This document shows positions 7,910-58,300 of a stretch of DNA of 64,000 bases, piece after piece. Position 1 is the stretch's first letter, and each line of letters starts with the position of its first letter. The notes under the pieces were generated by a model that had not been told where the DNA came from, did not search any database, and saw only the letters and a list, made by a program, of their open reading frames with translations. The DNA comes from Alphaproteobacteria bacterium (GTDB lineage Bacteria; Pseudomonadota; Alphaproteobacteria; CAAGCB01; CAG-977): positions 75,794 through 139,793 of the forward strand of contig CAAGCY010000024.1 of assembly GCA_900768465.1 (NCBI GenBank), read 5' to 3'. The position numbers were made by a program, and so were the translations under genes.

Positions 7910-7911
7910 AT

Positions 7912-9266: not shown

Positions 9267-9450
9267 AATCTAAACCTCTTTAGTTTGCTCCACAAAGAAA
9301 CATGTTGTCAAACGTATTTTTTGTGCGACATTCTCTTCATAATAAGATATAGAATTTACAGTCCGTTTATAGTTTTTTATATTTATTGTTCTTTTAAAAT
9401 CACTCCGAATCAATAAATGTCATGCAATATTAAAAGATAACTAAAATTAA

Positions 9451-24414: not shown

Positions 24415-24430
24415 TGTCATCCTCCTTAAT

Positions 24431-24462
24431 AAAAAAAGCACCCTTATTGTAGGGTGCTTTTT
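24431..24462 (-). terminator. Rho-independent terminator or attenuator between pal and the pal paralog
   Basis: On the minus strand: GCACCCU, loop ACAAUA, AGGGUGC, followed by U7. Confidence 0.55.
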
Positions 24463-24482
24463 CAAATCGGATAAGCTGTCAA

Positions 24483-24962: not shown

Positions 24963-25069
24963 CAACAATTCTCCCAATATAGAAAACAATGTTACAAATC
25001 GTGAATAGAATTTAAAAGATTTCCGCGTTCTTCGCAACCTTTTTTTAGCCTTTTGTTTAAATTCTTTTT

Positions 25070-27384: not shown

Positions 27385-27393
27385 AGCGGTGTC

Positions 27394-28677: not shown

Positions 28678-29082
28678 TTACATCGATTCGGCGAATTTTT
28701 CGCGAATCGGCGCGGGGATACGCGTCGGCTTGCCCACGCCCGCAACGGCAAGGGCGTAGACTTTGATTTCGACCAGCGTTTCATCGCCGCGCTTGACGGT
28801 CTGCAGCAAATCGAACGTTGCGCCGCCGATTCTCAGCACTTGCGTTTCCACGGTCAGCTCGTCTTCCAGCAAAGCGGGACGTTTGTATTCGATTTCCAGC
28901 TTGTGAATCATAAAGCCGCAGGGTTTTTCCGCTTTTTCCAAATCGCGGCATGAAATCCCCAATTCGTGCAGCATTTCCATGCGCGCGCGTTCCGCCATGT
29001 CGATATAGCGGGAATGATAGACAACGCCGCCCGCATCCGTATCGGCATAGCAAATCGAAAAATGAGCTTGAAACGTCTTCAT
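28678..29082 (-). CDS. ybgC: acyl-CoA thioesterase YbgC (4HBT family)
   Basis: HVSICYADTD..VYHSRY.. hotdog-fold signature, in the expected position ahead of tolQ. Confidence 0.85.
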   Translation of the reverse strand: MKTFQAHFSICYADTDAGGVVYHSRYIDMAERARMEMLHELGISCRDLEKAEKPCGFMIHKLEIEYKRPALLEDELTVETQVLRIGGATFDLLQTVKRGDETLVEIKVYALAVAGVGKPTRIPAPIREKFAESM

Positions 29083-30236: not shown

Positions 30237-30248
30237 TGTTTTTTCTCC

Positions 30249-42700: not shown

Positions 42701-44262
42701 TGCGGACGGTGCGACAATACGGCAAGCGGCGCGTCGTAGCCCATTGAACCGACGGGTTCCTGCGCGTTTGACGCCATGGGGTTCAAAATCAGCTTCAATT
42801 CCTCTGCCGTATAGCCGAATTCGTTTTGATACCGCTTCAGCGTTTCAACATCCGTCGCTTTATCGGCGGCGGGAGCATAAAGCGTGTTGATTTGAATACG
42901 GTTTTCGCGAACCCAGTGGCGGTACGGATTCTGACGCGAGATTTTACCCTTGATTTCGCTGTCGGACACGATTCTTTTCTGCCGCAAATCGACCAGAAAC
43001 ATCTTGCCGGGGGTCAGTTTGCCGCGCACGCGGATATTGTTCGGCGCAACGTCGATAACGCCCGCTTCGCTTGCCATAATGACGAATCCGTCCTTGGTCA
43101 CCGTATAGCGGCAGGGACGCAGTCCGTTCCTGTCCAGCAATCCGCCGACATAGTTGCGCCCGTCCGTGAACACCATCGCCGCGGGTCCGTCCCACGGCTC
43201 CATAATCGACGCGTGGTATTCGTAAAACGCGCGTTTGTCCTCGCTCATCACGAATTTGTCGCCGAACGCTTCGGGCACCATCATCATCATCGCGTGCGGA
43301 ATCGACCGTCCCGTAACCGTCAGCATTTCCAAAACGTTGTCGAAAATCATCGTGTCCGACCCCGTTTCGTCAATCACGGGTTTGATGTTTTCGATTTCCG
43401 CGCCGAACGCGTCGCTGGCGAGGTTCGGCTCAATCGCCCTGATATGGTTGACGTTGCCGCGCAAAGTGTTGATTTCGCCGTTGTGGGCGACCGCGCGGAA
43501 CGGCTGAGCCATGCGCCATGTCGGCAAAGTGTTCGTGCTGTAGCGCGAATGGGCGATGCAGAACGCGGCGGCAAAGTCTTCATCCTTTAAATCCGTGTAA
43601 AATTCCGCCATGTGCGACCCCGCGACCAGCCCTTTGTAAACAATGGTGCGCGGCGACAGGGAGCAAACGTAAAACTGGGACAAATCCTTGTCCTTGACGG
43701 CTTTGATTTCTTTTTCGACCGTTTTGCGGATTAAATAAAGCTTGCGAATGAACTCCTGTTCGTTCATCCCGCCGCTTGCCAGAAAGATTTGCTTGAACAC
43801 CGGCACGGTTTTCGCCGCGATTTCGCCCAGCAGGGAAAAATCGACGGGAACGTCGCGTTCGCCGATGTAGCGGCAGCCGTACTTTTCCGCCGTAATGCGC
43901 AAAGCGCGCAGACAGACGACGGCATCGTCGGCGTCAGAGGGCAAAAACACCTGTCCCACCGCGTATTCGCCCGTTTTGGGCAAAGCGAACGGAACGGATT
44001 TTCTGAAAAACCCGTCGGGCAGCTGCACCATGATTCCCGCGCCGTCGCTGGTTTTGCCGTCCGCGCCGATGGCGCAGCGGTGTTCCAGATTGCTTAAAAT
44101 CGTAATGCCTTTGCGCACCAAATCGTGTTCGGGTTTGGCGTTCAGATTGACGATAAAGCCGATACCGCAGTTTTCATGCTCCAAATTCGGATTGTAAAGC
44201 CCGAATTCGCGGGGTTCGCCCGCAGCGTTGCATGTAAAACCGTTTATCGTTTGTGTCGTCAT
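39712..44262 (-). CDS. gltB: glutamate synthase large subunit
   Basis: N-terminal amidotransferase Cys (CGIGF), FMN and Fe-S domains, 1516 aa. Start at the ATG at 44262 with a GGAGG RBS. No gltD is adjacent. Confidence 0.95.
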   Translation of the reverse strand: MTTQTINGFTCNAAGEPREFGLYNPNLEHENCGIGFIVNLNAKPEHDLVRKGITILSNLEHRCAIGADGKTSDGAGIMVQLPDGFFRKSVPFALPKTGEYAVGQVFLPSDADDAVVCLRALRITAEKYGCRYIGERDVPVDFSLLGEIAAKTVPVFKQIFLASGGMNEQEFIRKLYLIRKTVEKEIKAVKDKDLSQFYVCSLSPRTIVYKGLVAGSHMAEFYTDLKDEDFAAAFCIAHSRYSTNTLPTWRMAQPFRAVAHNGEINTLRGNVNHIRAIEPNLASDAFGAEIENIKPVIDETGSDTMIFDNVLEMLTVTGRSIPHAMMMMVPEAFGDKFVMSEDKRAFYEYHASIMEPWDGPAAMVFTDGRNYVGGLLDRNGLRPCRYTVTKDGFVIMASEAGVIDVAPNNIRVRGKLTPGKMFLVDLRQKRIVSDSEIKGKISRQNPYRHWVRENRIQINTLYAPAADKATDVETLKRYQNEFGYTAEELKLILNPMASNAQEPVGSMGYDAPLAVLSHRPQLLFSYFKQQFAQVTNPPIDPLREELVMSLMSFIGREKNLLTETAGHFRRLKLTSPILEPALLAHLEKIENEDIKSVRLNAVFDASKGGEGLNAALDDLFAKAENAVQNGADILILSDLECDKNHTPIPALLAVSGLHHFLIRKGLRYKAGIIAETGEAREVIHFAQLIAFGANAVCPAIALQTVRAMAENGELEKTKTPEEAEFAYLTALKKGLLKCFSRVGISTVRSFWGSQVFEAVGLGKALIDKHFTGTSSAIGGIGLDDIARDCAARHHRAFDESPEPELNVGGDYRLQRGGEEHLWTPQAMAMLKKAVRENDYALYKQYSALIENRDPLTLRALLRFKAGTPIDIAEVEPAENIMKRFVSAAMSMGSINRETHETIAIAMNRIGARSNSGEGGEDPYRFYTKPDGNDICSKIKQIASGRFGVTTEYLVNAEELQIKLAQGAKPGEGGQLPAHKVTEEIARIRHTVSGVSLISPPPHHDIYSIEDLAQLIFDLKMVNPNAKISVKLVAKAGVGTIASGVAKAKADVVTIAGYDGGTGASPMTAIRHAGLPWEIGVAETQQALIANGLRGRIKIQTDGQLKTGRDLAVAALLGAEEYGFGTALLITLGCCMDRKCHLDTCPMGLATQNPELRARFDGKPEYIINYLRFIAEEMREYMAQLGFKTVDDMIGRADCLEQDPAKKTGKAQGVDFARLLAMPKDGTRHFVASAEAEKSFDTALLPMIENTVKTGLKAAFTLPVRNTDRTVGARLSGAVVKRCGADGLEDDSITLELSGSAGQSLGAFLAKGVTIRVNGEANDYVGKGLSGGKIIVRHPPNVDFMPHENVIVGNVALYGATGGEAYFCGMAGERFAVRNSGALAVVEGVGDHCCEYMTGGTVVILGSTGYNFAAGMSGGIACVYDETEIFQTRCNLDSVDLENVWSKDDKEALHAILEKHYWYTGSAQAKRILDNWENRFPLFVKVVPIEYRKVLDRMKNAEGRNAEALSATEEVYV

Positions 44263-44348
44263 GAAAGCCTCCGCTTGTTTTGATACAAAAGCGGGGGAAA
44301 GATACACTTTTTTGACGGCTTTTTACAGCGGAAAATGCAGTTTTTTCA

Positions 44349-44558
44349 TCAATAATGCGGCGGCGGGACTTCTTCGGACAAAGGACGGACGAATTCGCCG
44401 GCGCCGTGCAGTTCCAAAAAGCGCACTTCCTTTTCCAAACGGTCGATGGTCAGCGCCTGTTCGGCGACGATTTGGTTCAAGTCTTTCAGCGTGCGGTCGA
44501 AATCCGCGACAAACATTTCCAAAGCGATAAAGCGTTCTTCGGTTTCAATATCGGTCAT
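44349..44558 (-). CDS. slyX: SlyX family protein
   Basis: 69-aa coiled-coil protein ending in ..PPPHY, as in E. coli SlyX. Start at the ATG at 44558 with an AAGGAG RBS; the track ORF has an 83-aa spurious extension. Confidence 0.7.
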   Translation of the reverse strand: MTDIETEERFIALEMFVADFDRTLKDLNQIVAEQALTIDRLEKEVRFLELHGAGEFVRPLSEEVPPPHY

Positions 44559-44670
44559 GGGCAAATCTCCTTCTATCCTCTTTTGTAGCTTCACAAACCG
44601 CAAATAACAAGTCATCACTTGAGATAGTTTCAAAAAAGGGATACCCTGCACAAAAAAAAGAGAGGTCACC

Positions 44671-45858
44671 ATGTCTGATTTGATTAACTTGTTTTGCACT
44701 TTGGCGAAAATTCCGTCCCCGTCCATGCGCGAAGACGCCGTCGCCGAAAAAATCATGTCTTTTTTCACCGAAAACGGCATTGATTGCCGCCGCGACGAAA
44801 CGGGCAACGTCTACGCCCGCGTTCCCGCGATCGATTCGGCGAAAAAGCCCGTTATGCTGTCCGCGCACATGGATGTCGTGGGCGACGACCGCCCCGTGCA
44901 TATCGTTGAAAAAGACGGCTTTATCGAAACCGACAAAACCCGCACTTTGGGCGCCGACGACAAAGCGGGCGTTTCGTGCGCCATGATGCTGGCGAAAGAA
45001 ACGGCTGCCGACAAAACGCTGAAGCACGGCGGGCTGGAAATCGTGTTCACCCGCGACGAAGAACAAAATATGACGGGCGCGCGCAACATCGAATATAAAA
45101 CGCTGGAATCCGAACACATCCTTGTTTTGGACGGCGACCGTTTGGGCGAACTGCAAATCGCGGGCGCGGGCTACACCAAAATGACGCTGTCCGTCACAGG
45201 CACGAAAGGCGGTCATTCGGGCATCGACATCGCCGATACGTCGCGCGTCAACGCGGTCAAGCTGTTGGCGGAAATCATGGCTCAAATTCCGCAAGGCGTT
45301 TACAAGCAAGACGAAACGGGCGTCGTTACGTCGATTAACGCGGGCGCAATCGCGGCGGGCGGACTGAAGAACATTCAAACCGACAAGCAGGGCGCGGCGT
45401 TTATGGCGGAACTGGCGGACAAAGCGATGACGAATATGATTAACACGGACGCATTCGCCGTTTATTCGATTCGCAGTTCCGATTTGAAAAACGAAGAACA
45501 ACTGCACCGCGACATCGAATCGATTGTCGCAAAGTTCAAGGATAAAGCCGACGTTTCCGTCGTCTTCAAGCGCAACCTGCCGCCGTTCGAGCGTTCCGCC
45601 GACGAAACGGTAACGATTGCCGCGCGCAAAGCCGCCGAAACCGCGAACGTCCCGTTGACCGTGTCGTCGTTTCACGCCGCGGCGGAAACGCATCTGTACG
45701 CAACGGAAACGAACAAGTCGGGCGTTGTGTTCAAACCCGTTTTGCTGGGTATCGCAAACATCTACAACATGCATTCCGCCGACGAAAAAATCGAACGCGA
45801 ATCCCTTGTCAAAGGCTATGCTTTATTGAAAGAAATCTTCAAACAAATCAACGCTTAA
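44671..45858 (+). CDS. M20B-family metallopeptidase (peptidase T-like tripeptidase)
   Basis: SAHMDVV and TLGADDKAGVSCAMMLA match the M20 metal-binding signatures; PepT-like. Confidence 0.8.
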   Translation: MSDLINLFCTLAKIPSPSMREDAVAEKIMSFFTENGIDCRRDETGNVYARVPAIDSAKKPVMLSAHMDVVGDDRPVHIVEKDGFIETDKTRTLGADDKAGVSCAMMLAKETAADKTLKHGGLEIVFTRDEEQNMTGARNIEYKTLESEHILVLDGDRLGELQIAGAGYTKMTLSVTGTKGGHSGIDIADTSRVNAVKLLAEIMAQIPQGVYKQDETGVVTSINAGAIAAGGLKNIQTDKQGAAFMAELADKAMTNMINTDAFAVYSIRSSDLKNEEQLHRDIESIVAKFKDKADVSVVFKRNLPPFERSADETVTIAARKAAETANVPLTVSSFHAAAETHLYATETNKSGVVFKPVLLGIANIYNMHSADEKIERESLVKGYALLKEIFKQINA

Positions 45859-45914
45859 GCCTTTTTTAACCCGCTGTTGTTATCCTCTATAATCCGATAA
45901 AAAAGGATAAGAGG

Positions 45915-46616
45915 ATGACAACAAACGATTTGGGCGCGGTATTGGCGCATACGAAAAACTGGATTTTCGACTTGGACGACACGCTTTATCCGCCGTCCGA
46001 AGTCATTTACGCCCAAATGGCGCGGCGCATCCGCGATTATATCATGAAAACCGTCGGCGTCGACGAACAAACGGCAAGCGTCATTCAGAAAAGCTATTAC
46101 AAGCAATACGGCGCGACCGTTCACGGGTTGGTGCTGGAACATCATATCAGTCCCGCCGATTTTACCGACTATGTTCATCGGCTTGATTTGTCGTCATTGA
46201 AGCCCGACCCGAAACTGCGCGCGGTTATGCAAGCTTTGCCGGGGCGGCGGTTCGTGTTCACCAACGGCGCGTACGAACACGCCGAACGCGTTTTAAAGCG
46301 CATCGGATTGGACGATTTGATAAACGGCATTTTTTCAATCCGCGAAGCGGGCTATATTCCCAAACCCGCGCTTGAAACCTATCAAAAAATGATAAAAGCG
46401 TTTAACATCAATCCCGCCGAAAGCATGATGTTCGACGACAACCAGCAAAACGTTCTGGGGGCGAAACGCGCGGGCATCAAAGGCGTTTGGATTTCGTCGA
46501 ACGTTTCAAACAACAAGTACTGCACGGCGGATTGCGACGATTTCTGCGACTATCAAACCCCCGATTTGGTCACTTTTCTGACGCCGTACTTCGGCAACGC
46601 GAAACAAGCGTCCTAA
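45915..46616 (+). CDS. HAD-IA hydrolase, pyrimidine 5'-nucleotidase family
   Basis: WIFDLDDTLYP motif I, HAD motifs II to IV, length 233 aa. Confidence 0.8.
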   Translation: MTTNDLGAVLAHTKNWIFDLDDTLYPPSEVIYAQMARRIRDYIMKTVGVDEQTASVIQKSYYKQYGATVHGLVLEHHISPADFTDYVHRLDLSSLKPDPKLRAVMQALPGRRFVFTNGAYEHAERVLKRIGLDDLINGIFSIREAGYIPKPALETYQKMIKAFNINPAESMMFDDNQQNVLGAKRAGIKGVWISSNVSNNKYCTADCDDFCDYQTPDLVTFLTPYFGNAKQAS

Positions 46617-46972
46617 AATTCCCGCCACGATTTGCCGTTCAGCAGCAAATCGACGGGCTTCGGTTCCCCGTATTTCGGCAAAGCAATCACCATTTCCGCC
46701 TTGACGGCCGAGGAACGCAAAACGGTTTCCAACTCCCGCGCTTTGTTTTCGGGAACATAAAAGCGGCGAATGTCGTTACAGCAGTCTTTGTAAGGCGAAT
46801 TTTCGGGATACAGCACTTGAATGCGCAAGTAATGCCCGCTCAGCAAATCGCGCGGATCGTAGCCTTCGACGGGCAGAACGATTTTTTCGGCGGTCGAAAG
46901 CGAAACCTGCAAAACAGACACCCAGCAAAACAGCGCGATTATCGGCAAAGCCAGTAAAATCTTTGTTTTCAT
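46613..46972 (-). CDS. GDYXXLXY-domain protein
   Basis: Signal anchor plus EGYDPRDLLSGHYLRI, a GDYxxLxY-like motif. It is coupled to the upstream DUF2157 gene by an ATGA overlap. Confidence 0.65.
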   Translation of the reverse strand: MKTKILLALPIIALFCWVSVLQVSLSTAEKIVLPVEGYDPRDLLSGHYLRIQVLYPENSPYKDCCNDIRRFYVPENKARELETVLRSSAVKAEMVIALPKYGEPKPVDLLLNGKSWREF

Positions 46973-48042
46973 TTCAGCCCCGCTTTCAGTTTCAAATCGA
47001 TTTTACGCCAGCCGACCGCCAGCCCCAAAATCACCATTCCCGTGAAAATCAGCCCGAACCCCGTCGACAGCAACGTTCCGAACAGCTCCAGATACGCCGC
47101 GAACAGCCGTATCCCCAAACACAGCGTCAGCATGCGGGAAAGCCCGACGGCTTTGGCTTGCGCGGCGGCAACGACCAAACACACCAGCACGCACAGCTGA
47201 GCGGCAAACACAACAATCTGTTCGTTCACGCCGCCCAACACCGTTGCAAAAACAACGCAAACGGGATACAGGGATTTATACGGCGTTTTAAGGGCGTAAA
47301 GCACTCCCGCCGCCGCCGCTGCCCAAACCGCCATGGAAACAAAGCCGACCGCGGGAATGTTCCGATGCCACATGTAATCGGGATTCATCAGCGGCAGCAC
47401 GGCGAATGCGGCGGAAAGCCACCGCACGGGGGTCAAAAAAACTTTCGCTTTGTCCGTCAGCAGCGTCGCCCCCCACACCGCCATAAAGAAAGCGGAAACA
47501 CACAAAGAGCTTTCAAAGTATTCCGCCCAGAAATCGAACACCTTTTCGGCAAAGGGGGAAGTCAAAAAAGCACCGAAAACCGCGGCTTCCCACAAAAACC
47601 CGAAAAGCACTTTTTTCGTCAGAAGCATCGGCGGAAAAGACAGCGCGCTCCAAAATGCCAGCGTTTTCCACGTTTCGGACTGCAAATGGAAAATCTGCCC
47701 GACCAGCCCCATCGCCGCGAAAAACAAAATGCCCTGCGAAAACAGCAAAGCTTCGAATACGGCGGGCTTTTTACCCTGCACGCGCACGGCGGCAACGGCG
47801 TTTGCGGCAAGCGCGGCAAACATCGCCGTCAACTTCAAACCCGCGGGAATATCCTGCCAATTCGCCGCGACAATCGCGACAATGCCCAATCCGACCGCGA
47901 ACACGCCGACCAGCCCCAACGCCAGAAACGGCGACAAAACCGATTTTCGGTTTTGCTCGAATTCCAACACTTTTTCACCCTGTTCGGCGGTAATCAAATC
48001 CGCCCCGACCCAATCGGATATTTTGCGCGCCAGCGATGCCAT
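46969..48042 (-). CDS. DUF2157-like integral membrane protein
   Basis: Multi-TM protein. It is the usual partner of GDYXXLXY proteins (a COG4872/COG4929-type pair). Confidence 0.6.
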   Translation of the reverse strand: MASLARKISDWVGADLITAEQGEKVLEFEQNRKSVLSPFLALGLVGVFAVGLGIVAIVAANWQDIPAGLKLTAMFAALAANAVAAVRVQGKKPAVFEALLFSQGILFFAAMGLVGQIFHLQSETWKTLAFWSALSFPPMLLTKKVLFGFLWEAAVFGAFLTSPFAEKVFDFWAEYFESSLCVSAFFMAVWGATLLTDKAKVFLTPVRWLSAAFAVLPLMNPDYMWHRNIPAVGFVSMAVWAAAAAGVLYALKTPYKSLYPVCVVFATVLGGVNEQIVVFAAQLCVLVCLVVAAAQAKAVGLSRMLTLCLGIRLFAAYLELFGTLLSTGFGLIFTGMVILGLAVGWRKIDLKLKAGLK

Positions 48043-48152
48043 AAAAGGTCCTCCCCGTTTGTTTTATCAACGATAGCACGGATTTTTGTTTACAAACAAC
48101 GCCTTTTTAACGTACATTTTTGAAATCTGCTGACAGGAAAGGATACTAAATC

Positions 48153-48596
48153 ATGAAAAAAGCAGCTTTGTTTTTGGTTTTGTTCTTGGGTTCCGCGTCC
48201 AACGCTTTCGCGTATGACAGCACGGGTTGCGGTTTGGGTTCTCTGGTTTTCAAAGGACAGAAAGGTCCCGTCCCCCAAGTTTTGGCGGTAACGACAAACG
48301 GTTCGTTCGGAACGCAGACGTTCGGCATTACGTCCAACACGTCGGGCTGCGACAGCTACGGCAGAATCACGGGCGGCACGGGTCGCATGTTCGCGTTTTT
48401 GGAAAACAATCTGGATCAGTTCGCCGCTGACGCCGCCGTCGGCAAAGGCGAAACCATCGAAGCCATTGCCGCCATCACCGGCCGCGATGCCGAAACGGTC
48501 GGCCGCGTTGCGCACAACAACTTTGCCGAATTGTTCGGCGACAAAGACGTTTCCGCTGTGACCGTCACGCTGAAAATGGCGGATTTGCTGGCATAA
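48153..48596 (+). CDS. DUF3015-like secreted protein
   Basis: Signal peptide and a conserved TGCGLGS motif; 147 aa. Confidence 0.55.
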   Translation: MKKAALFLVLFLGSASNAFAYDSTGCGLGSLVFKGQKGPVPQVLAVTTNGSFGTQTFGITSNTSGCDSYGRITGGTGRMFAFLENNLDQFAADAAVGKGETIEAIAAITGRDAETVGRVAHNNFAELFGDKDVSAVTVTLKMADLLA

Positions 48597-48602
48597 CAAG
48601 GA

Positions 48603-50429
48603 ATGAAATTCCTTTTATCGCTTAGTCTTGTTTTTGCTTTTGCCTTTCGCGTCCAAGCTGCTCCCGCGCCTTTGACCGAAAGGCAAAACGCTTTTATCGA
48701 ACGGGCGCAATCGTTGGGGAATCATCCTCAATGGCTGCGCTTGCTTCATTTTCATAAAAAACAAAGTACGATTGACACAAAAGGATTTTTTCTTGCCCCC
48801 GACGGCAAGACAAACCCGCAATCGGAATTGATTGCCGATTTAACGGCTTTTTTCAAAGGCGAATATCTGTGCGATTTTCCCGCCAGACGCATGTTTTTAA
48901 CCAAAGAACTGGGCATTGGCGCAAACGAGATGAAAACGCCCGAATGTGCGGATTATTCGGCTTTGAAAAAAGCGGTGAACGCGGATAACTTCACGCTGAT
49001 TTACACAACGGCGTTCATGGGCAATCCCGCTTCGTTTTTCGGACATACTTTGATGCGGCTGGATTCGTGCGAAAACCCCGCTTTGCTGGCGCACGCATTG
49101 AATTACGGCGCGGTAACGGGAAAAGATTCCGGCTTTTTTTACGCGGTTAAGGGCGTGTTCGGCGGATACCCCGGCATTTTTTCGCTGTATCCCTATTACG
49201 ACACGGTCAACCTGTACAACAATATGGAAAACCGCGACATCTGGGAATACCGGCTGAATCTGACGGATGAGCAGGCATCGTTTTTAATCGACCACATTTG
49301 GGAACTGGGGCGGCAAAGCGCGGACTATTATTTCTTTTCCGAAAACTGTTCGTATATGATTTTGGAAACGCTGAACGTTGTTTTTCCCGAACGGGACTGG
49401 ACGCAAAATCTGCCTCCGTTTACCATTCCCGCAGACACGGTTCGCCTGTTGATGAAACAAAAAGGCGTGATAAAAAAAGCCGTCTACCGCCCCAGCCGCC
49501 AAACCAAAATCAAAGCCGCCTACGCGTCGCTGTCCAAGCCCGAACGCAAGGCTTTGCTGAAGCTGAAGGACGACCCCGCCGCGGATTTGACGGAACTTTC
49601 CGCGCCGCGCCGCGCCGCCGTGTACGAAACGGCGTACGAATATCTGCAGTACCGCTATATCGAGGGCAAAGTCCCCCTTTCGACCCTGCGCGAACAATCG
49701 GTCGCTTTGCTGAAAGCGCGCAACGCCCTGCCTGTCGACAGCCTTGTTCCAAAGCCCGAAACGCCCGCCGTCCGCCCCGATGAAGCGCACGATTCTTCGG
49801 CTTTTACGGTGTCGTTCGGGCGTGATTTAGGAAAAAACTTTACGGAATTGGAACTCAAGCCCGCTTTGCACACCGTTTTGGACAATTCGGCGGGATATTT
49901 GCCTTTCAGCGGCATTGATTATTTCAAAGCCGCTTTGCGCGTGGACGCGGACGGCAAACCGTCCCTGCACCGCTTTGAATTCTTGAATCTGGAATCCTAC
50001 GCCCCGCACGACGCGCTGTTTCATCCCAAAGCGTTCCGCCTGTCCGCAGGACAAAACCGCTTTTTCTACGCGCCGAAAAACAAAGAACTCTCCGTATTCG
50101 ACGCGTCGGCGGATTTGGGGGCTTCGACTTTGCTGACCGAACATATCAACGTGTTCGCGCTCGGCTCCGTTACTTTCAAAGCGGGGGACAAAACCGTCGG
50201 CGGACTGGGCGCTCGGTTCGGTGTTTTGGCGGATTTCGGCACTCTGCGCGCCAAAGCCGACATCGCCCCCATGGCGTATACCCGAAGCGACGCGAACACG
50301 GTTTCGTACCGCGCGGCTTTGTCCGTTTCAATCGGCAAAAATCTGGATTGGGTGTCCGAATTCGCGTTCGACGACGGACGCGGCGCAAACCGCCGCGAAT
50401 TTAAATCGGGACTGCAAAAGCACTTTTAG
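48603..50429 (+). CDS. DUF4105-domain protein (Lnb-like, lipoprotein N-acyltransferase-related periplasmic domain)
   Basis: Signal peptide plus the WLRLLH and FGHTLMRLD motifs characteristic of DUF4105. Confidence 0.65.
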   Translation: MKFLLSLSLVFAFAFRVQAAPAPLTERQNAFIERAQSLGNHPQWLRLLHFHKKQSTIDTKGFFLAPDGKTNPQSELIADLTAFFKGEYLCDFPARRMFLTKELGIGANEMKTPECADYSALKKAVNADNFTLIYTTAFMGNPASFFGHTLMRLDSCENPALLAHALNYGAVTGKDSGFFYAVKGVFGGYPGIFSLYPYYDTVNLYNNMENRDIWEYRLNLTDEQASFLIDHIWELGRQSADYYFFSENCSYMILETLNVVFPERDWTQNLPPFTIPADTVRLLMKQKGVIKKAVYRPSRQTKIKAAYASLSKPERKALLKLKDDPAADLTELSAPRRAAVYETAYEYLQYRYIEGKVPLSTLREQSVALLKARNALPVDSLVPKPETPAVRPDEAHDSSAFTVSFGRDLGKNFTELELKPALHTVLDNSAGYLPFSGIDYFKAALRVDADGKPSLHRFEFLNLESYAPHDALFHPKAFRLSAGQNRFFYAPKNKELSVFDASADLGASTLLTEHINVFALGSVTFKAGDKTVGGLGARFGVLADFGTLRAKADIAPMAYTRSDANTVSYRAALSVSIGKNLDWVSEFAFDDGRGANRREFKSGLQKHF

Positions 50430-53137
50430 TCCTTCAGCACGGGAATTTTTTTGCCCTGATACAGGATTTTATCCGCCTTTTCGACGGGCGCGTCGACAAT
50501 GTCAAGCACGTCTTGAATCGCCAGCGCGTAATCGGCGAAAATCAAAACCGTTTGCGCAAAGGGGAAATGCTTTTTGTTCGAAGAATCTTTCAGCGGCAAC
50601 ATGTTCCCGTCAGCAATGAAAACGGGGCTGTTCGTTGCGCCGTCCATTTTGACACCGTCAAACGCTTCGATTTTCAAGACTTTGTCGACCGGAACCGCGC
50701 CCACGTTTTTGGAATCGCAGCGATAGACCAAATACGCCGCCATCGGCGCGGCGGATTGAATTTCGGGTTTTTCGACGGAAACGGGCAACGCCGCCCCCGT
50801 CATTTCCGGCGGACAAAGATTCAACAGGAACGATACGTCAATCCAATCCGCCCGCAAACCGCCCAGCGTTACGCACGGCTTTAAATAAGGCGTCTTTTCA
50901 TCGTTTGAATCCGCCACAAAAGAAACAAAAGCGTCCGTTTCCGTAATTTTTTGAACGGGCATCAAAAAATTGAAAATCCCCGCCTGCAAAACAATGCCCA
51001 AAACAGCGTCGCCGTCCTGCGTTCCGGGCAAGCTCAAAACGGGAAGAGTTTGTCCTTTGAAATCAAAACCGTTCTTGACGTCCGCGCCGTTCAAAGAAAA
51101 CGTTTCCGCCACCATATTCAGCGGAACTGCATATTTTCCCCCCGACACTTCAAAAGTCAGCACTTTGTCGAACAAATACTGTTTCGGCAAATAAAACTCC
51201 ACGCAAACGCCGCGATCGTCCCATATTCTGACCTGCCCCCCGCTTTGTTCCAGCAAACGAACGGCGTCCAGCAGTCCGCGCGATTGCTTGTCGCGCAAAA
51301 CCCGCGGATGGAACAAACAGCGCAGCAAACGGTTTTTCGACAGTTCGGCGGCGTCTTGAGGAGAACACAATCCAGCTTCGACCGCCGCGCCGCGGATTTT
51401 TTCAAACGGAACGGCGGACGAATTGTCGCAATACCGCACTTTCAAAAACGAGCCGCTTTGTTCAACGGACACCCGAACGGAAACGGTTTGCGTTTCGGGC
51501 GAAGCATAGCGCAGGGAGTTGTCCGTCAGCACGCGGAAAATCCTGTCCAAAGCGTCCCAAGCGCCGCAATCGACATCCATATCGGCGGCATCCGTGTCAA
51601 AAGTGTAAACCCTGTTCAGTTTTTGAGCCCGAACGGCAACAAAGTTTTGCAGTGAAACAAACAATTCGGACAACGGTTTCGACCGCGCCTTGCGAATGAA
51701 AGCGTACAATCCCGCGGCGGAACGGCTGTTGTCGCCTTCCAGCAATGCGGCAAAGTCTTTCTGTATCTTTTCGACATCGAACGGCCATCCCGCGGCGCGC
51801 AGTTCGGCGCGCAGTTTTTCGGCGGCGCGCTTGTCCGTTTCCAGTTCCTTGCTTGTTTGTTCCAACTGTTCGGATTTTGCATTCATTTCGTCGCTTAAAA
51901 CTTCTAAACGCCCCTGCAGATCCGTCAAGCGGCGTTCCGCGTTTTCTTTCGCGTCCAAAACATCTTCCGCGGATTGTTTGCTTTGCGTGAAATGTTCCGC
52001 CATTTCGTCGTACTTATGCTGCAGTTCCGATAAATCCGCCCCTATTCGGCAAGCGTTTTCCTCGCTGCGCGCATACTGCAGCTGCAAATTCTGCAAAGAA
52101 TTTTCGCTGTCGCGCAGCTGTTGCTTGGTCTGTTGCAATTCTTGGCGCAATTCGCTTTCGGTGCGGTTTTCGGCTTCTGATTTTTCGAACAATTCTTCCT
52201 CCAGCCGGCAAATCTGGCCGGTTAAGTCTTGAATGGTTTTGTTTTTTGATTCCAGCAGCTTGCGGTTTTCCTCCTGCCGCAAATCCTTGTCTTTGATTTG
52301 GGTACGCATTTGTTCGGATTCGGCGGTGTTTTGATTTAACTTGCCTTGCAAATCAACCAGTTCCCGCTCGACATCCGCGATTTTTTTGTCCTTGTCTTCT
52401 TTTTCGGCTTGCAAAACGCGGACGGTCTGTTTCAATTCCCGCATGCCGTTTGACTTTTCCGCCAAGAACCGGCGGGCGTCCTGCACTCCTTTTTCCTGCG
52501 TTTTCAAAAACGACAGTTTTTCATCCAGTTCGGCTTCGCGTTTCTGAATATCCGCCAAAACGGCGGCGATTTTGGTTTGAGCGTCGACGTTTTTCTTTTC
52601 GTCTTTGAAAATGCCGTTTTCACGCTTGTTCAAATCGTCTTCGCGGTTATCCAGCATTTTCGCGCGTAAAAGCAGTTGTTCTTCGCGACTGTCCAAATCG
52701 TGTTCCTGCAGCAGAACGTTTTTTTCCTTTTGAGACAGCAAGCGGGCGGTCTGCAGCAAAGCGGAAGCCGCCTGATTTGACGGACGCACATCCAACGGCG
52801 CGGCATTGTCCTCTTGCAACAAATCCGCATCGGATTCGCGGGGTTCGCGGCGCAGTTTGACGGCGGTCGCCATAATTTTTTTCAAACGGACGAATTTTTT
52901 CAAAACGGACGGGAGCGCGTCAATCGAACGGTTTTTCGATTCCGACAGCGCGGCGTCCGCCAGTTTGTACGCGCGCGGAAAAGCCGTAAAAGGTGCCGCA
53001 AAACGCACTTTTTCAAAAAAATCGATTATGCCGTTCCACGTTTCGCCGTCCGCGGGATTGCTTTCCAAACGGGGCAGTTTTTTTTCGACGGCTTCCATAT
53101 CGGCTTGCACTTCTGTCAAAAAAGCATCAATCAGCAT
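50426..53137 (-). CDS. degenerate CheA-like protein: His-less Hpt-like N-terminus, long coiled coil, pseudo-HATPase, two CheW-like domains
   Basis: The N-terminus resembles CheA P1 (LIDAFLTEVQADMEAVEKKL..FFEKVRFAAPFTAF) but has no His in residues 1-144. About 400 aa of heptad-rich coiled coil follow. The kinase-like region (IFRVLTDNSLRYA..) shows no recognisable N/G1/G2 ATP-binding boxes. Two CheW-like segments follow (YAVPLNMVAETFSL..LPVLSL and VGAVPVDKVLKIE..MLPLKD). Confidence 0.7.
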   Translation of the reverse strand: MLIDAFLTEVQADMEAVEKKLPRLESNPADGETWNGIIDFFEKVRFAAPFTAFPRAYKLADAALSESKNRSIDALPSVLKKFVRLKKIMATAVKLRREPRESDADLLQEDNAAPLDVRPSNQAASALLQTARLLSQKEKNVLLQEHDLDSREEQLLLRAKMLDNREDDLNKRENGIFKDEKKNVDAQTKIAAVLADIQKREAELDEKLSFLKTQEKGVQDARRFLAEKSNGMRELKQTVRVLQAEKEDKDKKIADVERELVDLQGKLNQNTAESEQMRTQIKDKDLRQEENRKLLESKNKTIQDLTGQICRLEEELFEKSEAENRTESELRQELQQTKQQLRDSENSLQNLQLQYARSEENACRIGADLSELQHKYDEMAEHFTQSKQSAEDVLDAKENAERRLTDLQGRLEVLSDEMNAKSEQLEQTSKELETDKRAAEKLRAELRAAGWPFDVEKIQKDFAALLEGDNSRSAAGLYAFIRKARSKPLSELFVSLQNFVAVRAQKLNRVYTFDTDAADMDVDCGAWDALDRIFRVLTDNSLRYASPETQTVSVRVSVEQSGSFLKVRYCDNSSAVPFEKIRGAAVEAGLCSPQDAAELSKNRLLRCLFHPRVLRDKQSRGLLDAVRLLEQSGGQVRIWDDRGVCVEFYLPKQYLFDKVLTFEVSGGKYAVPLNMVAETFSLNGADVKNGFDFKGQTLPVLSLPGTQDGDAVLGIVLQAGIFNFLMPVQKITETDAFVSFVADSNDEKTPYLKPCVTLGGLRADWIDVSFLLNLCPPEMTGAALPVSVEKPEIQSAAPMAAYLVYRCDSKNVGAVPVDKVLKIEAFDGVKMDGATNSPVFIADGNMLPLKDSSNKKHFPFAQTVLIFADYALAIQDVLDIVDAPVEKADKILYQGKKIPVLKD

Positions 53138-53153
53138 CGGAAGCCCCCTTTTT

Positions 53154-53774
53154 TCAAGCCGTAAAAGTCAGGGTAAAGCTCGTATCCGTCAGATTCGATT
53201 CAAACCCGAGCTTTTGTTCCGTCATCACCGCGCGGATAAACGCGGCACCTGCCGTTTTCGGGGACAAACCGTCCTTCCCGTTCAAAACATCAATCTGATG
53301 CGAATCCGTTTTCAGACTGTCCGCTTTGCCCGTCACGACAACCCGCTTTGTTCCCGCTTTGGCAACGACGGAAATTTTACCGCCGCGAATCATGCTTTCG
53401 GCAACGATTTGTCCCGCCAGCAAAATCACGCGGAACCAATACAGCGGCAGCTCGGCATCGACATCCCATTCGCATTCGAATCGCGCGGCGCGGTTTTCGA
53501 CGGATTTCAGCCAAGCTTCGAACAGTTGTTTTGTTACGCCCGAATCCGTCAAAGGACCGTCATTGCCGAACGCCGCCCTGAAAAAACGCAAGCGCGCCAG
53601 CAACACGTCCGCGCTGTTTGTCGCCAAAGCCAGCGTTTCTTCATCCGCGCCGCCGAATTCCGACAATAAATCCAAGCTGTTTGCCACAGCGCTCATCACG
53701 CCCGCCAAATCGTGGCTGAAGCGTGTTACGGCAACTTTCGACAAAACCAAATCCGTATCAGACACCGAAAACAC
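53154..53774 (-). CDS. chpT: histidine phosphotransferase ChpT
   Basis: TRFSHDLAGVMSAVANSLDLLSEF...LARLRFFRAAFG closely parallels Caulobacter ChpT (ARLCHDFISPASAIVSGLDLLED...LLQFTRVAFG). About 205 aa with a degenerate CA-like C-terminus. Confidence 0.7.
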   Translation of the reverse strand: MFSVSDTDLVLSKVAVTRFSHDLAGVMSAVANSLDLLSEFGGADEETLALATNSADVLLARLRFFRAAFGNDGPLTDSGVTKQLFEAWLKSVENRAARFECEWDVDAELPLYWFRVILLAGQIVAESMIRGGKISVVAKAGTKRVVVTGKADSLKTDSHQIDVLNGKDGLSPKTAGAAFIRAVMTEQKLGFESNLTDTSFTLTFTA

Positions 53775-53856
53775 CTTAATTTAATGATTTTAATCCCGCT
53801 TTGTTTTTTGTATACTAATTAAGTTAAGCAATGTTTACCAAACACAGGATTTAACC

Positions 53857-54078
53857 ATGACCAAAGTGCCTTCGACATTGCACGGTCTGACCGTCAACAC
53901 CGACCGAATCGCCGCGGCGTCAAAGCAACGCGTTTCAAACGGCGAAAAAGCCGTTTCCGCGACTGCTTTTCAGCGCGAACGTCCGTTCGACACGCAAAAC
54001 GCCGAATTCGTCGAATTGGACGGCAAGCGGTATTATTTGAACGCGCCGCGCGGCACTTATTTGAATATCTTGGTCTGA
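53857..54078 (+). CDS. hypothetical small protein (73 aa)
   Basis: ORF 12 nt upstream of the pilin-like gene, with a TATACT -10-like element upstream. No family recognised. Confidence 0.4.
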   Translation: MTKVPSTLHGLTVNTDRIAAASKQRVSNGEKAVSATAFQRERPFDTQNAEFVELDGKRYYLNAPRGTYLNILV

Positions 54079-54090
54079 AAGGGGCGGCAA

Positions 54091-54684
54091 ATGAACAACG
54101 GCGAACGGGGTTCCTCTTTAATCGAAGTAATGGGATTGCTGGCGATTGCGGGCATGATTGCCGTAACGCTGATGGGGGGGATTTCATCGGTCACGGGACG
54201 AATGAAAATCACGCAGGCGGAAAATCAGGTTTCGCGCATCGTTAAAAACATGCAAATCGGGTTTTCGGCGGACGTTCCCGAATTAACCGCGGAACATTCG
54301 GCTAAAAAACTGTTCCAAGCCGGCGTTTATTCGGAAGCGGACGTTTCCATCGACGGCGAAAATTACAGCGGCATCAACGTCTATGGCAGCCCTATGACGA
54401 TTGTGTCGGGATACCGCAACGGCTATCCTTATTTCGATTTGACATATTCCGACCTGCCCGCGCGCGTCTGTTCCGATTTGGCACAGGCAAACTTCGGCGA
54501 CGATCCGTCATCGGGATTGAAAAGCATCACCATCACCAACGAAGACAATCAAACCACCGTTTTCGAATGGGACAAGCCCGATTCGGACCCTCATCCGCCC
54601 CACAAATTACCGCCGTCCCTGCCGGACAGTATGGCTTCGTGCAAAGGATCGGCAAACAATATTACTTGGAGCTTTTACCTTTAG
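54091..54684 (+). CDS. type IV pilin / pseudopilin-like protein (prepilin-type N-terminal domain)
   Basis: ERG|SSLIEVMGLLAIAGMIAVTLMGG is a class III signal: a Gly, then a 5th-position Glu, then a hydrophobic helix. The C-terminal domain is about 170 aa. Confidence 0.6.
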   Translation: MNNGERGSSLIEVMGLLAIAGMIAVTLMGGISSVTGRMKITQAENQVSRIVKNMQIGFSADVPELTAEHSAKKLFQAGVYSEADVSIDGENYSGINVYGSPMTIVSGYRNGYPYFDLTYSDLPARVCSDLAQANFGDDPSSGLKSITITNEDNQTTVFEWDKPDSDPHPPHKLPPSLPDSMASCKGSANNITWSFYL

Positions 54685-55213
54685 CCGTTTCGCGGTGAAC
54701 AATCGGGAACGGAGCGTCCCATAAGCGACTGCCCGTTTTGGCTTCGGTTACGAACAAGTGCAGATAGTATTCCTGCCGTTTTTTCCGTCCTGCCAAATGA
54801 GCGGTGCGGTGCGTAATTTTTCCCGCAATGAAAAATTGCGGCGCGATTTTGCTTTTGGCGGACACGACGCGCACCTTGCGGCCGGATGCCAGCGCGTTTT
54901 TCAAATACTGCGCCGTCTGAGCCGCATCGAAATCATCCTTGCCCGTCGTATTGACAATTCGTCCGACGGCAACGACGTACTTGTCCCCGTCCACGCTGTC
55001 CAGCGTTCCCGATTTCAGCATATTGAAAACCGCCGTATTGACGGTGCGGCGCATATCCGCGCTTGTAAAATCCTTTTTCGGAGCGGGCGGAGCGACTTCG
55101 ACGGGAGCGGCAACAACGGGAGCGGGGGGCGGTTCAACAACGGGGGGCGTGCTTTGCGCCGACGTACAGCCGAACAAAATCGCACTTAAAGCCGCAATTG
55201 ATAGTTTTTTCAT
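54662..55213 (-). CDS. lipoprotein, LpoB-like (putative PBP activator)
   Basis: Lipobox ILFGC, a Pro-rich linker (PPVVEPPPAPVVAAPVEVAPPAP) and a ~140-aa globular domain reminiscent of LpoB/YcfM. The family call is tentative. Confidence 0.5.
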   Translation of the reverse strand: MKKLSIAALSAILFGCTSAQSTPPVVEPPPAPVVAAPVEVAPPAPKKDFTSADMRRTVNTAVFNMLKSGTLDSVDGDKYVVAVGRIVNTTGKDDFDAAQTAQYLKNALASGRKVRVVSAKSKIAPQFFIAGKITHRTAHLAGRKKRQEYYLHLFVTEAKTGSRLWDAPFPIVHRETAKGKSSK

Positions 55214-55354
55214 TCTGCCCTCTTCTTGCCGTAAACAAACTATGCGTTATCATAGCCGCAAACGGTTTGTTCTTGCACTCTTTTTTTCAAAACAACGTCG
55301 ATTTTATCGTTTTTTACCGTATTTCCGACAGAAAATCGCACCGTTTTTCCGCCT

Positions 55355-58300
55355 TTAGCGGCGACGGATAATGCCCGACGGTTTGGATACGGCGGCGGGA
55401 GCGGCTTGAACGGTCAAATCGGGCAAGTCCCCCGCGGGTTCCAAAACAGCGGCGGAATTATTGCTTTCGTCCCCCGAAGATCCGCGGCGGTGAATGGTCG
55501 CTTGCCGTTTCTTTTCCGCGGCGGCTTTTGCTTCCGCTTCGGCTTTCAAACGGGCTTCTTCGGCGGCTTTTGCTTCCGCTTCGGCTTTCAAACGGGCTTC
55601 TTCGGCAAGACGCGCCGCCTCGGCTTGCGCTTTGGTGCGTTCTTCGTATTCCCTTATCGCCTGATTTGCGCCCGCATTTTCCTGCATCGCCCCGTCGTAA
55701 ACGGTTTGCGCTTCCGACTGCAATACGGTCAGCTTTTCAAGCGTATTTTCGTTTTCCGCCTGATCTTCGATTTTTTTAAGCCTATCAACCAGTTTTATGA
55801 TTTTATCCATTGCTGTTTGAATTTGAGGAACTTCGGCATAACGCATTTTCTTCGTCGTCAAATCCGACAAAGCGGAATTGACTTGCGTCCGCAAATCCAA
55901 AATCCGCCCTTTAACCCCCAGCTTCATCGCCAGACGGTAGTCCTGATTCAGTTCGTTTTGGCGATTCAGCAGTTTTTCACGCGTCAACCGAGAGTATTTG
56001 GAAAAATCGTCCACTTTGATGTCGTTCGACCGCGCCGTTTTGCGGATATCGTCCAGCAAAGCTTCGGCGGCGGAGCGCGCTTCCGACAGCGGCGAAAAAT
56101 ACCGCTGCACCTGATACACGTCCGCATACGGCTTCAGATTTTCGATTTTTTTGACAAGCTCTTGCACGTCGGCGGCAAATTTGCCTTCCAGTTCAAACAA
56201 AGCTTTTTGCCGTTTTTCGTGTTCTTCGCGATTTTTCTTTTCTTTTGCGGCACTGGCTTTTTTGCGGTTTTCGGCATCCAGTTCCTGCTTTGCCTGATAT
56301 TGTTGAAGCGCGGCATCGGTCAAATCGCCGATATTGTCCCCGATAACAATCATCTGCCCCGATCGTTTTGTAATGTACAGCGCCAATTCGGAATCGTTGA
56401 CAGGCAATTTCAGTTCGACACGCAATTCGGCGGAAAGCAAATCCTCGGACATCCCGCCGATTTTATCAACCTTGTTTTTACCGTATTGAGCCTGCACATT
56501 GTCCGATATCAGCTTGCCGTTTCTGAGGGTGAAGGGCATTTCTCCTCTGTTAAACACGGTACTTCCGCTTAAAATCGCAGATTTAACCAATCCCGCCGTT
56601 TCGGGCGTCATATTTGCCAGCCGTTTTTCCGCGGCATCAATGTTCACCCCCGTCAAGACGGCTTTGTCGAAAAAGAATTTGCCCTCACCCGAAGCAGACG
56701 ATACGAAATCAAACATGGACGCGCCTTTGCCGTTGACGTTAAAATCAACAGCACCGTTTTCCAGTCCTTTGACATCAATGGCACCGGCATCGAACAGCGC
56801 CGCGGGAATACGAATATTGCCCGCATTTGCCGTCACAAGCATTTCAGGGACACCGTTTGTCAACGTTCCGTCCACCTGCAGACGCAAAGACGCCCCTTCC
56901 AAAGTGCCGTCCGTTACACCGATTTTGAAAGCATTTTCCGACGCCGTCAGCGACGCGGCAAAATTGTCCATCGAAAAACCGGGAACATAGAGCTTTTCCG
57001 CCCTTAAATCAAGTTGGAGATCGGCGTCTTTCGCAAAATCGAAATCGAATTTTTCCTTCGGCAAAGACAGCGTTTCCAACGCAGCCAAAGTTCCGTTGAC
57101 GGAAAACAGCTTTGCCTGTTCATCGACCTCTTTGGTTTTGAAATCGGGCCAAACGTTCAACGACGGCATCAGTTCGGCATAATACAGTTTGGTTGCCTCG
57201 GCGGACAAAGTCAGCTTTGGCTTTTCACCGCTTTTATCCCAGTCCAGCGTTCCTTTCAAAGCGCTGTGTCCGACGCTCAGTTCAACATCCGACAACTTGA
57301 CCCGCGACGGTTCGACGGCGACGCGCGCCGCCAGAGTCATCGCGCCGGGGTTGGCGGACATCGGACGGTATTTGTTGGTGAACAAGCGAACGAACTGTCT
57401 GAAGTTTTCATGCTTCACGGTTGTCAGGAAATTCAGCTCGTTTCCTTTTTCAAAGTGTTTGACCGTTCCGTCCGCCTCAACACCGAACGTTCCCGAACGC
57501 AAATTCGATTTGAATGCCAAATCGTCGGCGTTTCCGTTCAATACGGCGGAAAGGGACAATTTGTTTTGTTTCAGCAGCTCTTCCGGAAATTGCTCGATTC
57601 CGATATTTTTCAAAAACAGCGGCGCGTTGTCCGTTTTGACATCGACGGACAAATTTTCCAACAGCGTGTTTTCCCCGGGCTGTTTCAGCGTTCCCGCCAA
57701 TTTGATGTCCGCGCCCCACACATTTTGCGCCGAAATGTCTTTCAGAGTTACAATACCGTTTTGCGCGACAAAAGAAATTTTGGCATCCCGTGCGGATATG
57801 CCGCCGAACTTCAGCGAATCCGCCGTCAGATTGACCGCCGCGTCCGTATCGCCCGTAAAGCGCCAATAATCGGTCAGCGCCGCCGTTTTTTCGACAAAGC
57901 TTTGCGTTTTTGCATTTTCCCAGCGTTCCGCGAAAGCCTTGTCTTTGGTCGGGAAATACAGCGCCGCGTCAAAATTCGATACCGCCGCCGCGATTTGAAC
58001 GGCAGGCCGCGCACCGAAACGAACCGCCGCCGCACCGCGAATATTCTCGCCGTCCAGAACGGCATCGACGCCTTTGACCGACAAAGCGTTTTCCGCCGCT
58101 TTGACGACGGCTTTGACCGTAAAGGACTTCATCGCGCCCGACGACACGTCCTCATCGAAGGGAACACCCGCCCACCGCAAAAACGCCGCCAAGCTTTCGC
58201 CTTCCGCGCCGACGGCGAAATCCAGCACCGGCTTTTTCGCCAGCGTCAGCATTCCTCTGCCCGCAACATTCACTTCCCCCGGCAGCAACGCGCTCACGGT

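Follow-up and report, generated by a model that had tools for sequence, protein, structure and literature searches.

The window, meaning the whole stretch of DNA analysed here, comprises 64,000 nucleotides (nt) of contig CAAGCY010000024.1 from the alphaproteobacterial assembly GCA_900768465.1. The subject of this work is a gene on its minus strand that encodes a CheA-like protein of 903 amino acids (aa), together with the gene directly upstream of it, which encodes a protein of the ChpT family. Both had been pointed out in an earlier note made from the letters alone, and the open reading frame (ORF) given there for the CheA-like gene was recovered with the same ends and length. The gene pair and the domains of the CheA-like protein are laid out as follows.

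53154..53774, minus strand: ChpT-family HPTransfase gene, an ORF of 206 aa matching PF10090.
53138..53153, minus strand: intergenic spacer of 16 nt with a ribosome-binding site, AAAAAGGGGGCTTCCG, read directly from the sequence.
50426..53137, minus strand: CheA-like ORF, 903 aa, with an ATG start.
52853..53137, minus strand: P1/Hpt-like helical bundle, residues 1–95 (hhalign, AlphaFold2 and Foldseek).
52772..52852, minus strand: linker, residues 96–122, predicted to be disordered (alignments and AlphaFold2).
51794..52771, minus strand: heptad coiled coil, residues 123–448, 326 aa (AlphaFold2 secondary structure and periodicity).
51173..51775, minus strand: P3-like helix end and P4 (HATPase_c)-like domain, residues 455–655 (Pfam, PDB, Foldseek and hhalign).
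50768..51172, minus strand: P5, the first CheW-like domain, residues 656–790 (Pfam and hhalign).
50426..50767, minus strand: second CheW-like domain, residues 791–903, and the stop codon (hhalign and AlphaFold2).

The CheA-like protein was compared, as a profile built from 19 family sequences, with CheA-REC proteins, that is, hybrid kinases with a C-terminal receiver (REC) domain that are encoded in cheA-cheW-cheY-cheB-cheR operons. Residues 1–902 were found to be colinear with these kinases over practically the whole length (hhalign probability 99.5%, E 1e-22). A phmmer search of PDB sequences with the single window sequence aligned residues 471–692 with Thermotoga CheA (1b3q/3ja6; E 3e-6). 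Pfam matches of single sequences fell below threshold, yet they were correctly placed (HATPase_c and CheW). When the AlphaFold2 model (mean predicted local distance difference test, pLDDT, 70) was submitted to Foldseek, the top matches were CheA P3-P4-P5 structures (E 4e-15). The model comprises a bundle (residues 1–95), a disordered segment (96–122), two long helices (123–319 and 324–448), an alpha/beta P4-like domain and two CheW-like domains, so that the domain order reads P1/Hpt-like bundle, coiled coil, P4-like, P5 and second CheW-like. Judged by these comparisons, the protein is a genuine CheA homologue whose similarity lies well above chance, and the resemblance to CheA and CheW that had been proposed from the letters was thereby confirmed.

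Database searches returned a compact family of full-length relatives, from 99% down to about 30% identity, and outside it nothing but ordinary CheAs, built as Hpt/H-kinase_dim/HATPase_c/CheW/Response_reg. An exhaustive profile search gave about 13 family representatives at 50% identity, separated from normal CheAs by a score jump from E 4e-82 to E 2.5e-39. By its search scores the family is distinct from ordinary CheAs. The gene is carried by 19 species-level genomes, all of them uncultured gut, rumen or faecal Alphaproteobacteria, and in public records the protein is named only ‘hypothetical protein’. As a separate observation, a Pfam family, PF27881.1, is precomputed on two family members (P0004 and P0005), so that a curated family may already cover part of the CheA-like protein.

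The protein has lost its P1 histidine, its receiver and its ATP lid, and the locus its che partners, all described below, as would be expected of a functionless relic or pseudogene in decay. The ORF is nevertheless intact in all 19 species-level genomes, down to 29% identity, and its motifs are invariant. Against the 72%-identical orthologue of locus L001, dN/dS was 0.20 overall and 0.16–0.23 for the individual domains, with 0.46 for the linker; these values are comparable to those of the adjoining housekeeping genes. Such purifying selection and the intact ORFs argue for a functional gene and not for a decaying one. Together with the conserved length of the coiled coil, they effectively refute the pseudogene explanation, which we regard as barely credible.

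The N-terminal bundle aligned with CheA P1 at an hhalign probability of 97.9% (E 6e-13). A separate AlphaFold2 model of residues 1–122 had a pLDDT of 83 and a predicted template modelling score (pTM) of 0.74, and its Foldseek matches were CheA P1 domains and designed four-helix bundles with template modelling (TM) scores of 0.6–0.75; the latter we take to be CheA P1-derived. The closest folds were 1tqg (TM 0.71), 2ld6, 1i5n, 8c5v_C and 3kyi. The Foldseek E-values, about 0.06, were weak, which is common for helical bundles of such small size. Hence the N-terminus does resemble CheA P1, with CheA P1 structures as its best natural folds, and it is also free of histidine, as had been claimed: residues 1–145 contain none, the first being H146. 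The column of the CheA phospho-histidine is occupied by E42 in the window protein and reads EEEKSSDGDGDCGHKKANG across the 19 family members; it is variable in the family, with His in 1 of the 19. The Lys position of the CheA ‘HxxKG’ motif is an invariant Arg (R45 in the window protein). The possibility that R45 itself occupies the phospho-histidine position was considered and rejected, R45 being aligned with the HxxKG Lys and E42 lying in the His column. As far as the alignment goes, the protein cannot be phosphorylated on the canonical P1 histidine.

Immediately after the bundle, the linker opens with an invariant acidic motif, REPRESDxDLL (52823–52852, residues 96–105). Genuine CheA-REC proteins were found in the alignments to share it as EPEGxDxDLI, and in CheAs without a P2 domain it may serve as a short linear motif for docking. 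The AlphaFold2 model gave a pLDDT below 50 for residues 110–128.

The coiled coil that follows occupies the place of the Pro/Ala-rich P2 linker and the recognisable P3 dimerisation region of the CheA-REC relatives. It consists of its two long helices with a break at residues 320–323; its 3.5-residue hydrophobic periodicity has a z of 11.7 against shuffles, and residues 123–448 contain no proline. The earlier note had described about 400 aa of uninterrupted coiled coil. A long heptad coil is indeed present, but it measures 326 aa and is interrupted at that break. In NCBIfam the central part of the protein gave only low-level matches of the SMC/Rad50 type. No Pfam match to the P3 domain H-kinase_dim was obtained in the CheA-like proteins, and hhalign gave the coiled coil a probability of 0% against CheA P3, which is not significant; only the last helix before P4 aligns with CheA P3. 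The idea that the coil is a stretched P3 was therefore rejected, and the MAFFT pairing of ‘LLESKNK’ with the P3 segment ‘LVLTRNQ’ was likewise not significant. The length of the coil is exactly 326 aa in the window and in loci L001, L002, L014 and L016, at 29–72% identity, and is retained even between clades that are just 29–31% identical. It is 315 aa (11 fewer) in L003 and L004, and about 262 aa (56 fewer, equal to eight heptads) in the group L006–L013/L015/L017. The sole internal indels are thus of 56 and 11 residues. A length so conserved, and changing in such quanta, points to a spacer that has a structural role and a set length.

The P3 end together with the P4-like domain aligned with the corresponding part of CheA at 97.9% (hhalign, E 4e-13), and the P4-like domain alone gave Foldseek TM scores of 0.72–0.76 to CheA P4. 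With the single sequence, the Pfam HATPase_c match at residues 528–653 scored 22.4 bits, below the cut-off of 26.4. The N-box Asn, N540, stands in a classical ‘LTDNSLRYA’ context and is invariant in 19/19 members, as is the G1 Asp, D571, in the window G1 ‘CDNSSA’. A phmmer register against 1b3q in which Val replaced the N-box Asn was rejected, since the profile–profile alignment puts N540 on the CheA Asn. The second G1 Gly is missing from all 19 members; the first is retained by 13 of them, is lost in the window clade and is Ser in the window protein. The position of the CheA N-box His is variable across the family, and F609 is a further residue marked in this domain. The G2 box has shrunk to ‘SRGLL’ (R-G-L) with its glycines gone, and some 7 residues are missing from the ATP lid. 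The deeper members P0105 and P0106 have an intact G1 (DNGAG/DNGTG); both exceed the Pfam threshold for CheW, and P0106 also that for HATPase_c.

The claim that no N, G1 or G2 box can be recognised therefore stands for G2 and for most of the G1 glycines, and fails for the N-box and for the G1 Asp. The description of the protein as a dead kinase fared similarly: the missing phospho-histidine and the degenerate G2 and lid agree with it, and the family-wide invariance of the Mg-binding Asn and the adenine-binding Asp does not. Because N540 and D571 are invariant, nucleotide binding may be possible. We consider the protein likely to be catalytically dead.

A different view of the same residues is that the P4-like domain uses bound ATP to phosphorylate His21 in the co-translated ChpT-like dimer. 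ChpT resembles a dimerisation and histidine phosphotransfer (DHp) domain and would replace the lost P1 histidine; such a two-piece kinase would feed the relay without CckA. The invariance of N540 as a Mg ligand and of D571 as an adenine ligand, the DNGxG-like G1 of distant members, the conserved ChpT histidine and the tight operon are all compatible with it. It has to contend with the reduced G2, the shortened lid, the lost G1 glycines and the variable N-box His position. To our knowledge there is no precedent for a two-piece CheA-like/ChpT kinase, and we consider its existence here very unlikely.

P5 aligned with CheA P5 at 95.4% (hhalign, E 2e-8). Its Pfam CheW match in the window protein (residues 659–769) scored 18.5 bits, below the cut-off of 23.5, while the relatives P0105 and P0106 scored 41–48 bits, above it; a CheW match at E <=0.1 was obtained for 9 of 10 family members. 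The C-terminal domain was modelled confidently by AlphaFold2 over residues 799–900 (pLDDT about 88). It aligned at 94.7% (E 6e-8) with the second CheW-like domain of CheA-REC proteins and at 0.5%, which is not significant, with their receiver. The candidate reading of this domain as a degenerate receiver was rejected on this comparison. On the alignments, the two CheW-like domains are ancestral and the receiver is lost. Two CheW-like modules had indeed been foreseen; they are present, but are no novelty, since intact CheA-REC relatives also have two.

The gene directly upstream belongs to the ChpT family, as had been supposed. Its product matched PF10090 (HPTransfase) with 43.6 bits against a cut-off of 22.9, and matched Brucella ChpT (4qpj) at E 1e-9 and Caulobacter ChpT (4fmt) at E 2e-4, with the H-box histidine aligned. 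The NCBIfam ChpT equivalogs were missed, NF046025 with 49 bits (cut-off 225) and NF046018 with 45 bits (cut-off 240). The likely true start of the gene is a GTG at 53765, which would make the protein 203 aa long, the length of P0023. His21 lies in the H-box, ‘RFSHDLAG’, and is kept in all homologues covering the H-box except P0026. A histidine so conserved suggests that the ChpT-like protein is presumably an active phosphotransferase.

Between the stop codon of the chpT-like gene and the ATG of the CheA-like gene, the spacer carries the ribosome-binding site AAGGGGG; it measures 16 nt and not 17 nt, the distance given before. The gap was found to be 3–22 nt, with a ribosome-binding site, in 18/18 related loci, and 117–166 nt, by gene coordinates, in canonical che loci. 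From this arrangement, the CheA-like gene is almost certainly co-expressed with the ChpT-family gene, and the contraction of the gap is the sole locus-level hint of selection for co-expression. A promoter and terminator scan around the gene pair returned nothing above the shuffled expectation, and no terminator-like site was found in the 16-nt gap. No CtrA box (TTAA-N7-TTAA) was found upstream of the chpT-like gene; two occur elsewhere in the window, which is the chance level.

HPTransfase homologues from outside the clade, 27–36% identical to the HPTransfase of the window, were examined in their contigs. In 8/8 informative loci (L020, L022, L023, L025, L027, L028, L029 and one locus without DNA) the HPTransfase gene immediately precedes a complete CheA-REC/cheW/cheY/cheB(/cheR) operon; a ninth contig (P0091) ends within the downstream gene and was hence uninformative. 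The CheA of these loci has 887–930 aa and comprises Hpt, H-kinase_dim, HATPase_c, CheW and Response_reg. Next come cheW, cheY and cheB, with cheR as well in the 6 loci whose region reaches far enough. One of the loci (L027) belongs to a cultured organism, Magnetospirillum sp. UT-4, and there the domain set of the downstream CheA was confirmed by Pfam, with two CheW-like stretches. From their gene order, we take these operons to be of the Che1/cheOp1, F5 type, and they probably are F5-class systems. The F5 chemotaxis class is named in PMC12442639.

The CheA-like gene is thus the positional, colinear descendant of the CheA-REC that follows HPTransfase at the head of a che operon in Magnetospirillum and related Alphaproteobacteria. 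The earlier note had set the adjacency of chpT and the CheA-like gene apart from the textbook pathway; it is inherited synteny, found in all eight outside loci including that of Magnetospirillum sp. UT-4. The two genes were neighbours before the CheA-like one degenerated, so their position alone does not amount to new wiring and speaks only weakly for a new scaffold function with ChpT.

These operons also lend weight to the explanation that HPTransfase is a chemosensory-specific subfamily relaying from the receiver of CheA-REC, and that the window pair is a remnant of this relay, unrelated to CckA-CtrA. Every more distant homologue examined heads a CheA-REC operon, and hybrid kinases as a rule depend on an Hpt partner. 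The NCBIfam ChpT cut-offs are missed widely, as noted above, and the DHp helix motif differs, being HDLAGV... in the window clade and HDLAGP... in the che-linked genes. On the other side, the best matches among solved structures are bona fide ChpT proteins, and the annotation of the Joint Genome Institute (JGI) labels relatives of the ChpT-like protein as ChpT. Moreover, CtrA controls motility in Rhodospirillales, so that chpT beside che genes is not odd. The distribution of the CtrA pathway is treated in PMC2877005. On balance we consider a purely chemosensory subfamily somewhat unlikely.

The present neighbourhood of the pair is of another kind. Across the clade the order is AsmA/LpoB/pilin-like/ChpT/CheA-like/Lnb/DUF3015/DUF2157, a non-che neighbourhood common to the other 17 loci with two flanks; L005 differs downstream, where lipopolysaccharide (LPS) genes lie. 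The CheA-like gene is convergent with the Lnb-family gene, with an overlap of 4 bp, and the guanine-plus-cytosine (GC) content around it is unremarkable. No cckA, ctrA, che, methyl-accepting chemotaxis protein (MCP) or flagellar gene was found by Pfam or NCBIfam among 56 of the 58 window ORFs, the two of 107 and 90 aa being left out of the scans, and neither the syntenic 22-kb loci nor the scanned flank of L005 yielded a che gene. The scanned ORFs include genes for Tol-Pal, FtsH, GltB and PhoB. The last of these, an OmpR-type regulator at 33555–34262, was considered as CtrA and rejected: it is PhoB (316 bits, above the cut-off) and the sole OmpR-type regulator in the window. Rfam and transfer RNA (tRNA) scans of the window gave no matches.

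This neighbourhood bears on a further explanation, namely that the CheA-like protein belongs to a chemoreceptor array, which it joins through P5 and the CheW-like domain as a subunit with a structural or regulatory part, with the MCPs and an active CheA encoded elsewhere and the adjacency simply inherited. P5 and the second CheW-like domain are its best-conserved CheA features (CheW in 9/10 members; dN/dS 0.16–0.22), the adjacency to chpT is ancestral, and a CheA3 P1 structure (3kyi) is among the fold matches. Split and incomplete CheAs occur in Alphaproteobacteria; in Rhodobacter sphaeroides, CheA3 and CheA4 divide the work in a comparable way. The explanation is weakened by the lack of any MCP, cheW, cheY or flagellar gene in the scanned window ORFs or the syntenic 22-kb loci, by a gap contraction (from about 117–166 to 3–22 nt) that suggests selection for co-expression, and by a 326-aa coiled coil that has no counterpart in array CheAs. 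We therefore judge an array subunit unlikely.

Several other observations were made in the window. When positions 40428–58234 were compared with loci L002, L003 and L004, a mosaic appeared. The block from gltB to DUF2157-DUF3015-Lnb (about 40.4–50.4 kb) shares 94–96% DNA identity with UBA2903 and HGM16788, and Lnb and DUF2157 share about 99% protein identity with them. Identity drops from the stop codon of the CheA-like gene onwards (CheA-like 54–61% aa, ChpT 68–71%, pilin-like 47–64%, AsmA 44–54%) and is back at 85–88% nt past about 57–58 kb, whereas against L001 it is a uniform 85% throughout. The pattern points either to recombination with a boundary where the two genes converge (50426–50429) or to a fast-evolving or allelic envelope-and-signalling block. 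A stretch of low GC content lies at about 5000–9400 (0.40–0.48 against 0.51–0.58 elsewhere in the window); it holds a LysR-type regulator (5058–5957, minus strand) and ORFs without Pfam matches, including 6511–7218 and 8670–9266, and was probably acquired as an island. Beside the Tol-Pal cluster stand two tandem paralogues of a putative DUF6782 metallopeptidase (29079–31376, minus strand). The pilin-like gene is divergent from the chpT-like gene, syntenic across the clade and fast-evolving (27–79% identity). The two features concerned are the following.

54091–54684, plus strand: pilin- or pseudopilin-like gene with the N-terminus ‘GSSLIEVMGLLAIAGMIAV’ and weak PilS_N, ComGE and GspG matches.
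23986–28595: Tol-Pal cluster of TolQ/TolR/TolB/Pal-like genes.

Compared with known systems, the CheA-like protein stands closest to the CheA-REC of che operons in Rhodospirillales-like Alphaproteobacteria. About 900 residues are colinear, with P1, the EPxxxDxDL(I/L) motif, the P3 end and P4, P5 and the second CheW-like domain in common, and both genes take the same place directly downstream of a ChpT-family gene. The window protein differs in having no phospho-histidine, H-kinase_dim signature, G2 box or receiver, in having lost part of the ATP lid, and in its 326-aa coiled coil, which stands in for the Pro/Ala-rich linker and P3 of the relatives. Its gene also differs in having no cheW/Y/B/R downstream and a gap of 16 nt instead of about 117–166 nt.

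With CheA3/CheA4 of R. sphaeroides the protein shares an incomplete domain set in which P1 and P5 are retained, and its P1-like fold matches CheA3 P1 with a TM score of 0.72 (Foldseek; CheA3 P1 structures 3kyi/3kyj). The P1 of CheA3, however, keeps its histidine, which is phosphorylated in trans by CheA4, and CheA3 has no long coiled coil; the window protein has no such histidine, retains a degenerate P4 and contains the long coil.

A functional analogy may be drawn with DivL, a pseudo-histidine-kinase regulator of CckA (PMC4211667). Like DivL, the window protein would be a kinase derivative that has lost its phosphorylatable histidine and regulates within the ChpT/CtrA sphere. A DivL structure (4q20) is among the Foldseek matches of the CheA-like model. 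DivL is, however, a derivative of a class I (DHp-CA) kinase, with only the GHKL fold in common with the CheA-like protein.

The upstream gene resembles ChpT (Caulobacter 4fmt/4fpp, Brucella 4qpj) in its PF10090 domain, H-box histidine and length of about 205 aa. It differs in being about 30% identical, in falling below the NCBIfam equivalog cut-offs, and in having nearest outside-clade relatives that are all linked to che operons.

On the whole, the protein is probably a non-catalytic CheA descendant kept under selection, and its coupling to ChpT is plausible. The explanation that we favour, to which we give an even chance, is that of a remodelled CheA-REC descendant which now serves as a coiled-coil scaffold or pseudo-kinase gating or positioning phosphotransfer via ChpT. 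In a clade of uncultured gut and rumen Alphaproteobacteria, cheW/Y/B/R have gone from the locus, and the protein has lost its P1 histidine, its C-terminal receiver and the glycine-rich lid of the ATP site. The length-constrained 326-aa coiled coil has taken the place of the P1–P3 linker and the dimerisation region. The gene has turned into a tight bicistron with the chpT-like gene while every domain has remained under purifying selection. The product would no longer be an autokinase, but an elongated, coiled-coil dimeric scaffold or a pseudo-kinase. Its His-less P1 and the acidic EPRESDxDLL motif may have kept a surface on which a receiver domain or a ChpT dimer docks, nucleotide may remain a conformational ligand of its P4-like domain, and the pair of P5 and CheW-like domains may mediate assembly. 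The P4-like and P5-CheW parts may likewise offer retained surfaces to which ChpT, a receiver domain or both would bind. Produced in step with ChpT, the protein would position or gate phosphotransfer, much as DivL gates CckA.

A number of observations weigh against this explanation. Contact with ChpT is putative, and since all genes of the neighbourhood keep their synteny across the clade, the adjacency is partly phylogenetic inertia; the HPTransfase/CheA pairing, moreover, is older than the degeneration of CheA. The invariant N540 and D571 and the intact G1 of the deepest members leave room for residual ATP-dependent activity. The single CheA-like sequences gave no match to Pfam Hpt, and the first CheW-like domain is poorly modelled by AlphaFold2 (pLDDT below 50).

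A broader proposal is that ChpT-family proteins partner CheA-REC in a chemosensory-ChpT(-CtrA) relay in Magnetospirillum-like bacteria, and that the CheA of the gut clade has become a coiled-coil pseudo-kinase, a ChpT-binding counterpart of DivL that localises or gates the CtrA relay. We hold this to be quite unlikely as a whole. In the literature searched, we found no discussion of ChpT with CheA-like or CheW-like proteins, or of HPTransfase genes heading che operons.

As kinds, both incomplete CheAs and pseudo-histidine-kinases were known before. If the scaffold or pseudo-kinase explanation is true, a CheA-derived member would join the small set of repurposed pseudo-histidine-kinases. The locus also offers a clean natural example of a chemotaxis operon in decay with one component retained and rebuilt. 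The synteny of HPTransfase and CheA-REC is a lead that may matter more than the CheA-like gene itself: its occurrence across Magnetospirillum-like Alphaproteobacteria suggests a possible chemosensory input to the ChpT/CtrA relay.

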